The notes: generated from the sequence alone by a model not told the origin. Positions 33,277 through 36,418 are shown, counted from the stretch's first letter. The stretch: DNA of 64,000 bases from Escherichia coli (GCF_003334315.1 NZ_QOWR01000018.1); one strand, 5' to 3'. Made by a program: numbers and translations.

Positions 33277-33325
33277 TTAAAGGAAAAGTTGCTGTCTGAT
33301 TTTCATTAGTCTAACATTTTAAATG

Positions 33326-33354
33326 TTGGAATCGCAACGTAGTTATTATCATAT
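33326..33354 (+). promoter_or_regulatory. Candidate late promoter pR' (Q utilisation region)
   Basis: TTGGAA -35-like hexamer, 17-bp spacer, TCATAT -10-like hexamer, directly downstream of Q and upstream of a terminator. Confidence 0.35.
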
Positions 33355-33376
33355 AACAGCTTGTTTCCTGATTTAG

Positions 33377-33403
33377 CCAGCCTCCCCAAAGGCTGGTTTT
33401 TTT
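33377..33403 (+). terminator. Rho-independent terminator (tR'-like)
   Basis: CCAGCC-TCCCCAAA-GGCTGG followed by TTTTTTT. Confidence 0.6.
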
Positions 33404-33431
33404 CTAATAAGTATCATTTCGGGTGGGGATT

Positions 33432-33956
33432 TTATTGTTTAACCCATAATAGTTCATTGACATTGAATCCCAACTTTTGAGCGGTACGCACATAGTCTGC
33501 TTTTACATTATCTGGAATAGTTTGGGTCCTTGCCAGAATCCATAGGTATTCTCTGTTCGGACCACTGACAAGAGCATACTTATACTCATCATCCAGCTTG
33601 ATTACATTATAGCCACCATAGAAGGGGCCAAAAAACGAAACTTTCAACGCTGCAGTTTTAGTATCTCCAGTAAAGTATGCTTTACCTTCGCTCTCGCTCC
33701 ATTTGTTTTTCGTTGGATCGTATCCACGGTTAAGTACGCGAATCCCTCCGTCGTTCCGTTTTTCATAAGTAGCGCTGACCTGTTCCAGACCACGTTCGAA
33801 CCAGTTCTCGAGGCGAGCTATTTCATACCATTTTCCGAGGTAGCGGTTGGCGTCAAAATTTGTAATCGGCTGCACACCTTTAGGTGGTGTCGGGGCCTTA
33901 CATGCTATAAGAGTGAAAGAGAGTGCAATGCCAGTCAACACAGGCCATAACTTCAT
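33432..33956 (-). CDS. Blc-like outer-membrane lipocalin lipoprotein (174 aa)
   Basis: Lipobox LIAC; lipocalin signature NFDANRYLGKWYEIARL and ...KVSFFGPFYGGYNVI...; strongly resembles E. coli Blc. Confidence 0.85.
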   Translation of the reverse strand: MKLWPVLTGIALSFTLIACKAPTPPKGVQPITNFDANRYLGKWYEIARLENWFERGLEQVSATYEKRNDGGIRVLNRGYDPTKNKWSESEGKAYFTGDTKTAALKVSFFGPFYGGYNVIKLDDEYKYALVSGPNREYLWILARTQTIPDNVKADYVRTAQKLGFNVNELLWVKQ

Positions 33957-34148
33957 AATAAATCCTGTACTTTTGATAGTTGAGAGTAAGTATGAAAGAT
34001 AGATGAGTACGACCGATCACTTAAAGAACTTTCCTACTATATTAGGAATAGTCAATAACAGAAAAATTGTCAGTGATGAAGCCAGAAAGGCAATTTAGTC
34101 CGTGCACTACAAAGTTTATGTGTTAATGAATTAGTCAAGGGGGAGGAA

Positions 34149-35108
34149 ATGATAAAAAAACCTGTGATTGGGATCAGCGGTTGTTTGGGCGGTTCTGCTG
34201 TTCGTTTTGATGGTGGTCACAAAAGAGATGACTTTTTAATGGACAAATTAGTGGAATGGGTAACATTCAGACCAGTATGTCCGGAAATGGCTATAGGGCT
34301 GCCAGTTCCGCGTCCTGCTCTACGACTTGTGCGCTCGAAGCAAGGAAATATACGGATGTGTTTCAGCCACGACCAGAATGAGGATGTGACAGAGAGAATG
34401 ACAGAGTTTAGTCGTTCTTATATGGACAAATTAAAGGATGTATCGGGGTTTGTGGTTTGTGCTAAATCTCCCAGCTGTGGCATGGAGCGCGTGCGTGTCT
34501 ATGATGAAAATGGTAATCGAGGTCGTAAAGATGGAGTGGGACTATTTACGAGCACTTTGATGGAAAAGTTTTCCTGGCTACCGGTTGAAGAGGATGGGCG
34601 ATTACATGATCCAGTGCTTCGTGAGAATTTTATTGAAAGAGTTTTTGCTTTGCATGAGCTCAATCACCTTTACAAGGAGAAATTATCAAGAAGAGAGTTA
34701 TTAGCTTTTCATAGTCGTTATAAGCTTCAGTTGTTGGCGCATAGCCAGGCAGGCTATAAAGATATGGGACCATTTGTGGCTGCAATACACGAGTGGGCGG
34801 ACCTTGAATCATACTTTGAGGTGTATCGTGATAATCTGATGGCGATTCTCAGAAAACCAGCATCACGTAAAAATCACACGAATGTGCTGATGCATATACA
34901 GGGGTATTTTAGTAATTACTTAAGTACACGCCAGCGTAAAGAGTTGAGCGAGGTTATACTTAACTATCGCTTTGGCACATTGCCTCTTCTTGCGCCGTTG
35001 ACTCTGCTGAAGCATTATCTGGGTGAGTATCCTAATGATTACTTGCTTACACAGAATTACTTCGATCCCTATCCGGAAGAACTGGCTCTAAGACTGATGG
35101 TGAATTAA
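34149..35108 (+). CDS. YbgA-like DUF523/DUF1722 protein (TudS-type Fe-S domain, 319 aa)
   Basis: N-terminal GISGCLGG plus conserved Cys residues typical of DUF523; C-terminal DUF1722-like region; GGGAGG SD. Confidence 0.75.
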   Translation: MIKKPVIGISGCLGGSAVRFDGGHKRDDFLMDKLVEWVTFRPVCPEMAIGLPVPRPALRLVRSKQGNIRMCFSHDQNEDVTERMTEFSRSYMDKLKDVSGFVVCAKSPSCGMERVRVYDENGNRGRKDGVGLFTSTLMEKFSWLPVEEDGRLHDPVLRENFIERVFALHELNHLYKEKLSRRELLAFHSRYKLQLLAHSQAGYKDMGPFVAAIHEWADLESYFEVYRDNLMAILRKPASRKNHTNVLMHIQGYFSNYLSTRQRKELSEVILNYRFGTLPLLAPLTLLKHYLGEYPNDYLLTQNYFDPYPEELALRLMVN

Positions 35109-35505
35109 CTGTATGCGATATCATCTGAAAGTGATGAGTTCCTGTATGCAGGATATTTACAATCGTAAAAACTACGCTATGATGCTCATAGTGTCAGTTT
35201 TTATAAAAATCCTGTTCACGCTAAAGAAAACATTGAGATGCAATTTAATGTTGGTAAACATACCAGCCCCAAACGATTTTATTCAATCTGTTTTTATATG
35301 AAGATATTTCAAGTGAATATTAAGAGTATATAATATTATTATTGCACGCAGCTATTATAATATAACAGATTAGTTTAATGATTTGTTTTTTGTGAGTTAA
35401 ACACATGGTTTTATAGTTGTGATGCAATGAGATTTTCCTTATTGTTGAACTGGCGAATATTGATTTTCCACCTATACTTACCTGGTGTAACCCCAATGAT
35501 ATCAG

Positions 35506-36228
35506 GTGGATAATATGCCATACATATGTTCTATCATTTTGGTGTTGAACTCGTTTGGTGTCCGAATTGGTAAAGAAGATATTTTGTTTAAAAAAGGAAA
35601 TGCTGTCCTCATTGAATACAATTTAAAAGATCTTTTTTCGTCAAATACAGATCATCTAATGATCGTAGATGTTGAGGAGAAAACAGTTAATGATTTCTTT
35701 AAAAACTACACACTCTCACCTTTTTCTGTAAGAAGGTTTTATCCGTCATACTTGATAGTAGAATGTGAAGATTTTTCATTGTTAAAGAACTTGGTTGCAT
35801 GCTTGAATTGTGATAGCAAAACCGTGGATGTAGTTAGAAATCAAATATCACTTGCATGTCTTGCTGTCTTATCTTCAGAGAAAATAGTGCAAAGTTTTTT
35901 GTTCGGAAGTCTTAATAGCTTAGGTTGTAAAGTTAAGGCTATTATTCACTCGGATATCTCAGCGTCATGGAGACTTTGTGATATATCTTCAAGATTATAT
36001 ATGAGCGAGAGTTTGTTAAAAAGAAAATTAAAAGACGAAGGATTATCGTTTAGTAAATTAATTCTTGAAGAACGAATGATGATGGCGCAAAGATTATTGA
36101 TCTACAGTAACCATACTGTCGGCAAGGTGGCGGGAATATGCGGGTATGACAATGCATCATATTTTGTAAGTGTTTTTAGAAGATATTTTGGTGTGCCTCC
36201 GCACCAATATTTATCAAGATTTTCTTAG
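35506..36228 (+). CDS. AraC/XylS-family transcriptional regulator (GadX/AppY-like, 240 aa)
   Basis: C-terminal dual HTH (...YFVSVFRRYFGVPPHQY); sits in a very AT-rich island. Confidence 0.8.
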   Translation: MDNMPYICSIILVLNSFGVRIGKEDILFKKGNAVLIEYNLKDLFSSNTDHLMIVDVEEKTVNDFFKNYTLSPFSVRRFYPSYLIVECEDFSLLKNLVACLNCDSKTVDVVRNQISLACLAVLSSEKIVQSFLFGSLNSLGCKVKAIIHSDISASWRLCDISSRLYMSESLLKRKLKDEGLSFSKLILEERMMMAQRLLIYSNHTVGKVAGICGYDNASYFVSVFRRYFGVPPHQYLSRFS

Positions 36229-36418
36229 AAGATATGATGTGATGGCATTTTATAAAGTTATTTTTTGAAGTGTAAGATTATACGATATTTTTAGCTACGC
36301 CAGAATAATTGCTGGCGTTTTTCTTTTTGAATAGATGTTCGGGCCTTACGCTAATGTAACTTCTTTCCTTCTTCGAACCAAACCGTGTACACCATCCGTT
36401 ATCTGCGGAGGTGAGGCT

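Follow-up and report, generated by a model that had tools for sequence, protein, structure and literature searches.

A lipocalin gene, rudS and an AraC-family gene as a probable lysogenic-conversion cassette between Q and the holin gene of a lambdoid Escherichia coli prophage

Genes and features of the locus

A stretch of 64,000 nucleotides (nt) from Escherichia coli (GCF_003334315.1, NZ_QOWR01000018.1; the whole stretch is termed the window in the following) was analysed with respect to a block of genes located between the antiterminator gene Q and the holin gene of a prophage. The window holds a near-complete lambdoid prophage at the Qin site, adjoining rspAB, with tail fibre genes extending to ~63.7 kb. 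The open reading frame (ORF) list contains three intact genes between Q and the holin gene, at the places given for them in a first-pass annotation of this DNA: blc on the minus strand, followed by rudS and an AraC-family gene (araC in the following) on the plus strand. We consider it probable that this block is a composite moron of two pieces, which serves as a lysogenic-conversion cassette. Gene identities, intactness, purifying selection and a fixed synteny in many phages and prophages were established by sequence comparison, and the tRNA 4-thiouridine (s4U) desulfidase activity of an orthologue with 92% identity to the RudS protein of the window has been demonstrated in a published study. 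The features referred to below are the following.

20483-21778: integrase gene of the prophage
32899-33276, plus strand: antiterminator gene Q (125 amino acids, PF06530/QuuD type), left anchor of the slot
33259-36398: variable Q-to-holin slot, i.e., the full extent of the cargo cassette, with limits taken from homology to phage 4A7
33289-33317, plus strand: candidate late promoter pR' (TTGCTG, 17-nt spacer, TAACAT), read from the sequence directly after the stop codon of Q
33375-33405, plus strand: tR'-like intrinsic terminator (9-bp stem and seven T) from a terminator scan
33432-33956, minus strand: blc, Blc-type lipocalin of 174 amino acids, predicted outer-membrane lipoprotein (based on NCBIfam, PDB and lipobox)
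33957-34148: divergent blc/rudS intergenic region of 192 bp, presumed to hold the genes' own promoters
34149-35108, plus strand: rudS, fusion of a TudS (DUF523) [4Fe-4S] desulfidase with DUF1722, 319 amino acids (based on domains, residues and identity to RudS_vir)
35109-35514: AT-rich intergenic region with a mosaic junction, ~30% guanine plus cytosine (GC; 0.30-0.33)
35156-35183 and 35390-35417: promoter-like sites from a consensus scan, which performed no better than on shuffled sequence
35515-36228, plus strand: araC, AraC/XylS regulator of the Rns/ToxT/GadX/PatE class, 237 amino acids (ATG start) or 240 amino acids (GTG start at 35506)
36297-36326, plus strand: intrinsic terminator after araC (ACGCCAG-loop-CTGGCGT, then TTTTCTTTTT) from the terminator scan, 93 nt before the start of the holin gene
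36419-36634, plus strand: class II holin gene (EssD type), first lysis gene and right anchor of the slot

The slot as a moron position

The use of the Q-to-holin slot for cargo and the logic by which such cargo is regarded as a moron are textbook knowledge. Both anchors were assigned by their matches. Q was found with PHROG 79 (E = 1.4e-50), is annotated as 'antiterminator Q family protein' (WP_001204787.1) in the copy of NZ_LR881940 and is 95-98% identical to the Q proteins of the phages 1H12 and IdasGreatGrand. The holin matched PHROG 9876 and PHROG 20, and its copy in NZ_LR881940 is annotated as essD. The limits of the cargo were delineated using the porin-carrying phage 4A7, whose homology to the window ends at 33258 and returns at 36399. 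The sequence in between (33259-36398) is collinear with 1H12 and IdasGreatGrand at 80-92% nucleotide identity.

When the region was compared across related prophages, the filling of the slot was found to vary: 4A7 has its porin gene there, L055 an AraC-family gene alone, and Qin of K-12 the genes ynfS-cspF-cspB-ynfU, as had been stated for cspB and cspF in the first-pass annotation. The GC content is 0.51-0.56 in the genes ahead of Q, 0.40-0.46 in blc and rudS and 0.30-0.35 in araC. Hence, the base composition does fall across the cassette, with araC as its most AT-rich gene. A filling which differs among related phages and a foreign GC content are two marks of a moron, and the earlier reading of the slot as a moron position is retained. 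A third mark would be an own promoter and terminator, of which a terminator was found after araC (36297-36326); the promoter-like sites were no more numerous than in shuffled sequence. Classical cargo between Q and the lysis gene S, i.e., stx of Shiga toxin (Stx) phages, the nmpC/lc-type porin of DLP12- and PA-2-like phages and cspB/cspF of K-12 Qin, shares both the slot and the foreign base composition with the cassette. In the porin phages, a minus-strand outer-membrane gene stands directly after Q, as blc does here. In contrast to the classical cargo, the cassette of the window consists of other genes, appears to be composite (three genes in two pieces) and includes a predicted RNA-modification eraser.

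Identity of the encoded proteins

The second gene of the block had been described as encoding a YbgA-like Fe-S protein. The YbgA part of this description applies to the C-terminal half, since the E. coli YbgA model covers only residues 161-315 of the 319 amino acids. The Fe-S part corresponds to a TudS domain at the N-terminus, and the protein as a whole is RudS: TudS (PDB 6Z92) aligns with residues 6-114, and the orthologues carry the Pfam domains PF04463 and PF08349. A copy of the E. coli gene ybgA was rejected as an explanation for rudS, as YbgA of K-12 consists of the C-terminal domain only and has no TudS domain. Cys12, Cys44 and Cys110 of the window protein align with C10, C43 and C104 of TudS, and the CPE and SPSCG motifs are kept; the same three cysteines are given as cluster ligands for RudS_vir and RudS_ST (PMC11417400, Table 1). 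The residues C12, C44, E46, R55, S107, S109 and C110 are all present, whereby E46, S107, S109 and R55 were equated with E51, S111, S113 and R60 of RudS_KT by motif offset (CPE...PRP, SPSCG) and not by direct alignment.

Fusions of TudS with DUF1722 are termed RudS and have been described as a family of desulfidases acting on tRNA 4-thiouridine (Jamontas et al., NAR 2024, PMC11417400). RudS_vir, i.e., gp66 of Escherichia phage 1H12 (H3V29_gp66), was cloned in that study, and E. coli cells overexpressing it had less s4U in their tRNA (PMC11417400). At 91.8% identity to RudS_vir, the window protein has the same length of 319 amino acids, the same TudS-DUF1722 fusion, the same Cys12, Cys44 and Cys110, and the same place in the order Q-blc-rudS-araC-holin. 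The window allele differs at 8% of the amino acids and lies on a Qin-site backbone, whereas 1H12 has a lambda-like O/P backbone. RudS_ST (Salmonella ORF319) also agrees with the window protein in length and cysteine numbering. By its homology to RudS_vir, the protein of the window is assigned as a tRNA s4U eraser with predicted desulfidase activity.

The designation of the first gene as Blc-like was confirmed, with a full-length match (residues 1-174) to NCBIfam NF007786 at 312.6 bits (cutoff 267). Pfam PF08212 was found on orthologues of the protein. Like the chromosomal Blc of E. coli (PDB 3MBT, 1QWD, 2ACO), the phage Blc is a lipocalin with a lipobox (LIAC at residues 16-19, with Cys19 as the lipidation site and Lys at position +2), and it is 62.6% identical to the former over 155 residues (3MBT, E = 8e-67). 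It is, however, nearer (77-80%) to the Blc proteins encoded next to rudS in the chromosomes of Enterobacter, Leclercia and Lelliottia, and is therefore regarded as an imported paralogue, not as a copy of the host gene. As a moron, blc was reported in >50% of 19 lambda-like infant-gut coliphages (Mathieu et al., Nat Commun 2020, PMC6969025); the blc of those phages (1H12 and the ev phages) belongs to the same gene family and comes from the same phage series as that of the window. Judged by homology, the protein probably handles lipids at the outer membrane, with the location and the binding of lysophospholipids or fatty acids taken from its relatives.

Blc could instead be a surface-modifying or superinfection-exclusion factor which disturbs the receptors of other phages. 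The lipobox would suit such a role, as would the minus-strand outer-membrane porin gene (nmpC/lc type) which 4A7 and many other phages hold at the same position, and membrane proteins predominate among lambda morons (Mathieu et al., PMC6969025). On the other hand, the identities to the housekeeping lipocalin and to the rudS-linked chromosomal copies argue for ordinary lipid binding, and an exclusion phenotype of Blc has not been reported. Furthermore, PADLOC found no match to its defence models in the cassette, which makes a known anti-phage system unlikely. In total, we regard exclusion by Blc as very unlikely.

The third gene belongs to the AraC family as proposed before. HTH_18/HTH_AraC domains (PF12833, PF00165) were found on homologues of the protein and the DNA-binding domain of GadX (PDB 3MKL) aligns with 40% identity (E = 4e-21). 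Among the NCBIfam models, YdeO was best with 113.8 bits (cutoff 348), and GadX reached 90 bits (cutoff 500). Both equivalogs were rejected, as the scores are far below the curated cutoffs. An AlphaFold2 model of the protein had a mean confidence (predicted local distance difference test, pLDDT) of 87.8, and Foldseek placed CsvR, Rns and ToxT on top (~250 columns, E between 5e-11 and 1e-7). The template modelling (TM) score against these three is ~0.45, a low value which probably stems from the domain orientation. Names of the protein clusters contained generic annotations only.

A full-length comparison with the AraC regulator of prophage CP-933H in strain EDL933, the only one in that prophage, gave 48% identity. 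The window protein resembles PatE and PsrA/PsrB of enterohaemorrhagic E. coli O157:H7, which are prophage-borne, AT-rich regulators of ~240 amino acids with the same two-domain layout; for PsrA/PsrB this likeness was taken from their description only. PatE and PsrB activate the acid-resistance genes gadE and hdeAB (PMC10877973). The window protein was rejected as an orthologue of PatE, given 48% identity and its location in the Q-to-holin slot instead of at the end of the prophage; it would be a paralogue at best. No AraC-like gene was found in the examined parts of Sakai Sp6 and of EDL933 CP-933N (said to be O island OI-50). Relatives with 51% and 39% identity follow Q immediately in prophages whose Q belongs to two other families, PF06323 and PF03589, and further homologues were found in 29 phage records. 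Most relatives whose context was inspected are prophage cargo, two of them directly after Q. The gene araC is classified as an uncharacterised paralogue of known prophage regulators.

Distribution, intactness and selection

Matches to the cassette (2.9 kb) were obtained in 1153 out of 5426 complete E. coli genomes, with a coverage of at least 80% in 890. For rudS, coverage of at least 80% was found in 1064 of the 5426 genomes (19.6%), among them E. coli HS and the enterotoxigenic strain B7A. The cassette is also carried by 12 isolated lambdoid phages (1H12, Lambda_2E9, the ev series, IdasGreatGrand) and by 36 IMG/VR contigs, in which the order Q, blc (minus strand), rudS, araC, holin is kept as far as the contigs extend. 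The IMG/VR copies form three allele groups. At least two backbones are involved, the Qin type of the window and a lambda type with O/P/NinB/RusA/YlcG. All three proteins are full-length members of PHROG families of 'unknown function' (E between 1e-96 and 1e-224). The novelty supposed in the first-pass annotation is therefore largely lost: the cassette is a conserved module, present in isolated phages as well as in about one fifth of the complete E. coli genomes, and blc and rudS have already been described in the literature.

In pairwise comparisons with two other alleles, the ratio of non-synonymous to synonymous substitutions (dN/dS) was 0.09-0.24 for the three genes (0.09-0.20 for blc, ~0.2 for araC), from which purifying selection on all three is concluded. 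Degradation to pseudogenes was rejected, since the ORFs are full length, show these dN/dS values and, in the case of RudS, have kept the catalytic residues.

Several copies are damaged, which would be expected for neutral, hitch-hiking DNA kept by its linkage to Q and the lysis genes. Insertion sequences (IS) interrupt some copies, and araC is frameshifted in four IMG/VR copies. E. coli BL21 TaKaRa (NZ_CP010816.1, 1553854-1561749) has the same Q and an identical lipocalin, and an IS3-associated deletion, which reaches the tail fibre genes, has truncated rudS of E. coli B/BL21 at codon 49. However, the low dN/dS was obtained for all three genes and in three allele groups, every catalytic residue of RudS is kept, and the cassette persists in plaque-forming or inducible phages with tight limits on genome size. 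In addition, rudS was independently acquired by another group of phages (see below). Neutral hitch-hiking is unlikely because of this signal of selection, and we judge it extremely improbable.

Origin of the two pieces

The origin was examined with one genome per species, which gave 41 RudS loci of Enterobacteriaceae. Homologues of RudS with 66-75% identity were found in Citrobacter, Enterobacter, Klebsiella, Leclercia, Lelliottia, Kluyvera and related genera. In 23 of the 41 loci, rudS is preceded by a divergent blc gene, which is 68-80%, mostly 77-80%, identical to the phage gene; a MerR gene is nearby in 25 loci, usually between blc and rudS. The usual chromosomal layout is blc (minus strand), a gene of the MerR family (MlrA/CarH-like), a hydroxyisourate-hydrolase-like gene and rudS (plus strand). 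Citrobacter sedlakii has blc immediately next to rudS, and the spacer of 188 bp is close to the 192 bp of the phage. Chromosomal loci such as those of Enterobacter hormaechei and E. cloacae thus share the divergent blc/rudS arrangement with the phage cassette, but the latter is devoid of the MlrA/CarH-like MerR gene and of the transthyretin-like gene, and has an unrelated AraC-family gene appended downstream.

No AraC-like homologue was found at the chromosomal blc-rudS loci. Hence, the earlier statement that the genes have chromosomal-type homologues holds for blc and rudS (23 of 41 loci) but, as far as these loci are concerned, not for araC. The alignment to 1H12 breaks at 35323-35420, where identity drops from 90% to 80%, and the synonymous divergence (dS) of araC exceeds that of blc and rudS by a factor of 2-3. 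Because of the alignment break, the raised dS of araC and the absence of an AraC gene from the chromosomal loci, the cassette is regarded as composite. These comparisons identify the blc-rudS pair as a captured chromosomal module minus its MerR gene, and araC as a separately acquired mosaic piece.

A group of Citrobacter prophages (IMG/VR L094-L099; Citrobacter sp. MGH106) carries rudS without blc or araC. In this group, rudS belongs to the nin region, with the replication genes on one side and RusA/DUF968/Q on the other; csp genes come after Q, and the RudS protein is 72% identical to that of the window. This looks like a second, independent capture of rudS by lambdoid phages. The distribution suggests that the blc-rudS piece and the araC piece are each recurrent phage cargo. 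Besides, Citrobacter braakii ATCC 51113 has two contigs (L013, L014), each with a rudS whose product is 75% identical to the window protein.

The exchange of one regulator for another could indicate that the AraC-like protein is the cassette's own regulator, which replaces the lost MerR protein and controls blc and rudS rather than a host regulon. The chromosomal locus has its MerR gene (MlrA/CarH-like) between blc and rudS, the phage has araC directly downstream instead, and the synteny of the three genes is fixed in the three allele groups. Nevertheless, araC has diverged differently from blc and rudS and forms a mosaic piece by itself. Its homologues occur without blc and rudS, both after Q elsewhere and at the end of CP-933H, and some copies have a frameshifted araC next to intact blc and rudS. 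Host genes are the targets of the closest relatives that have been characterised (PMC10877973). Control of the cassette by its own AraC-like protein is, accordingly, clearly unlikely in our estimation.

Transcription of the cassette

A candidate pR' was placed directly downstream of Q because the lambdoid rule puts this promoter after Q. The 9-mer ATATAACAG (33350-33358) is kept downstream of Q in the otherwise diverged region of 4A7. The sequence 33318-33408 folds into two hairpins followed by a U-run (-24.1 kcal/mol, z = -4.6), and the terminator at 33375-33405 is kept in 1H12 and IdasGreatGrand. If 33318-33408 (plus strand) were transcribed constitutively, a small leader RNA analogous to the 6S RNA of lambda would be produced in lysogens. 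Eight terminator-like sites were found in the region, compared to 2.9 ± 1.5 expected. In the Rfam search of the cassette nothing real was found, the single sub-threshold match (33362-33405) being the terminator hairpin, and no tRNA genes were found in the region.

An alignment of the phage with the Citrobacter sequences was used to search 33957-34148 for a conserved operator or promoter; the sequences were too diverged and no conservation at DNA level was found. The divergent promoter of blc, which had been claimed in the first-pass annotation, is plausible, but the consensus scan gave it no support. Own promoters of blc, rudS and araC are likewise considered plausible.

Homology common to phages with other cargo starts only ~20 nt upstream of the ATG of the holin gene. 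A shared promoter can therefore not be located there, and in working phages such as 1H12, transcription from near Q must cross the whole cassette to reach the lysis genes. Such read-through copies blc in antisense and both rudS and araC in sense orientation, which agrees, as geometry, with the earlier proposal that the plus-strand genes lie in the path of late transcription. The same logic of read-through applies to the stx genes of Stx phages.

This arrangement allows RudS to be viewed mainly as a gene of benefit to the phage in lytic growth, with lysogenic conversion as a secondary role. Ultraviolet (UV) light induces the prophage via the SOS response, and UVA cross-links s4U8 to C13 of tRNA and stalls translation; late expression of rudS would strip s4U, so that late proteins could still be made in sunlit cells. 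The sense orientation of rudS between the Q-dependent start region and the holin gene fits this view. The same is true for the at least two acquisitions by lambdoid phages at two different positions, the reduction of both s4U and the UVA growth delay by RudS, and the loss of the chromosomal MerR gene on the move to the phage. However, rudS of the Citrobacter prophages lies in the nin (delayed-early) region and not in the late operon, and the divergent region of 192 bp points to a promoter of its own, as at the chromosomal loci. In addition, RudS converts s4U to U, and repair of tRNA which is already cross-linked is not known for it; expression after UV may therefore come too late. A predominantly lytic benefit is possible, but lies on the less probable side.

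Other features of the prophage

Just upstream of Q, the DUF968 (ydfU-like) gene is split into 31832-32374 (180 amino acids) and 32375-32881 (168 amino acids), both on the plus strand; NZ_LR881940 has a near-identical copy, which its annotation gives as a frameshifted pseudogene. An ORF of 98 amino acids (36882-37178, minus strand) is located between the holin/DUF1327 genes and the lysozyme gene and corresponds to the hypothetical protein WP_001013163.1 of a related genome. No PADLOC hit was obtained for this ORF, which may represent a further small moron within the lysis cassette. The lysis genes are immediately followed by a second cargo cluster: a cspA-type thermoregulator 5' leader (38539-38955, plus strand; Rfam RF01766, 109.8 bits) precedes cspI (38694-38909), and matches to ymcF, ynfN and gnsB come after it.

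Rfam matches elsewhere in the prophage were the sok antisense RNA of the hok/sok (hokD) module (30693-30867, plus strand) and the DicF small RNA beside dicB (25238-25289, minus strand), both as in K-12 Qin, as well as IS009 (63488-63686, plus strand; 212 bits). The latter is inside the ORF 63145-63726, which follows the long ORF 59912-63145 at the tail fibre end. In the early region, 26335-27041 and 28616-30693 have no near-identical counterpart in the prophage of NZ_LR881940, which is otherwise 98-99.6% identical and has a P-loop ATPase gene (Sll1717 family) at the place of 28616-30693. The ISEc23 insertion in the DUF1441 gene of NZ_LR881940, just upstream of the large terminase gene, is absent from the window.

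Discussion

The cassette between Q and the holin gene is confirmed to be real but largely ordinary, being a common block of prophage cargo with two of its three genes already in the literature (PMC6969025, PMC11417400). In the interpretation which we consider probable, i.e., a composite moron acting in lysogenic conversion, the first piece would be the divergent blc/rudS pair, copied from a chromosomal locus of Enterobacteriaceae with loss of the MerR gene. The second piece would be the AT-rich regulator gene of the PatE/GadX/Rns class, which comes with an AT-rich upstream region and a terminator of its own. In a lysogen, each of blc, rudS and araC would be expressed from its own promoter and would alter the host. 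Blc may change the handling of lipids at the outer membrane. RudS would lower the photosensitive s4U of tRNA and thereby shorten the growth delay induced by UVA, a capacity absent from the E. coli core genome. The AraC-like protein may activate stress genes silenced by H-NS, e.g., those for acid resistance, as PatE does. The terminator at 33375-33405 would end a short leader transcript unless RNA polymerase has been modified by Q. After induction, Q-modified RNA polymerase starting just after Q would pass this terminator and the one at 36297-36326 to reach the holin gene, so that the products of rudS and araC would be formed in the late lytic phase as well.

Several observations weigh against parts of this interpretation. 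The candidate pR' is our own reading of the sequence and is absent from the sites of the consensus scan. The same scan gave no sigma-70 site in 33957-34148, and its 13 promoter sites in the whole region, compared to 11.2 ± 3.3 in shuffled sequence, are uninformative. RudS_vir was less active than some bacterial RudS proteins despite good solubility, and was examined by overexpression only (PMC11417400). The UVA phenotype is that of the Pseudomonas enzyme RudS_KT, which cut the growth delay from ~105 to ~60 min (PMC11417400), and not that of the phage RudS. With respect to the regulator, the AraC protein of CP-933H is probably PatE (Z0321, OI-8), an assignment based on location as the sole AraC gene of that prophage, and the identity of 48% is too low for a confident transfer of target genes. 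Finally, the frameshifted copies imply that araC is dispensable in some lineages.

Some results extend the published accounts. The study on RudS treated rudS_vir alone and stated that E. coli lacks RudS (PMC11417400); this is true for K-12 but not for the species, as ~20% of the complete genomes have a prophage rudS. BL21(DE3) was the host of the published RudS UVA assays (PMC11417400). The prevalence of rudS and its truncated remnant in BL21 matter for work on UVA, solar disinfection and tRNA modification across strains. The chromosomal origin of blc-rudS with loss of the MerR gene and the second independent acquisition of rudS are also additions, and both point to genuine selection for the carriage of a tRNA eraser by temperate phages. 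Furthermore, PatE-like AraC regulators recur directly after Q in combination with three different Q families.

A wider view takes the cassette as a coordinated module for life outside the gut which only phages supply to E. coli. RudS would erase s4U in lysogens and, from the late transcript, again after UV, so that translation, including that of late phage proteins, would continue in sunlight, and Blc and the AraC-like protein would adjust envelope and stress regulons. We regard this view as speculative and rather unlikely. If it were true, prophage rudS would explain differences between E. coli strains in their sensitivity to UVA and solar disinfection, and the cassette would be a case of a temperate phage which deploys an eraser of tRNA modification.

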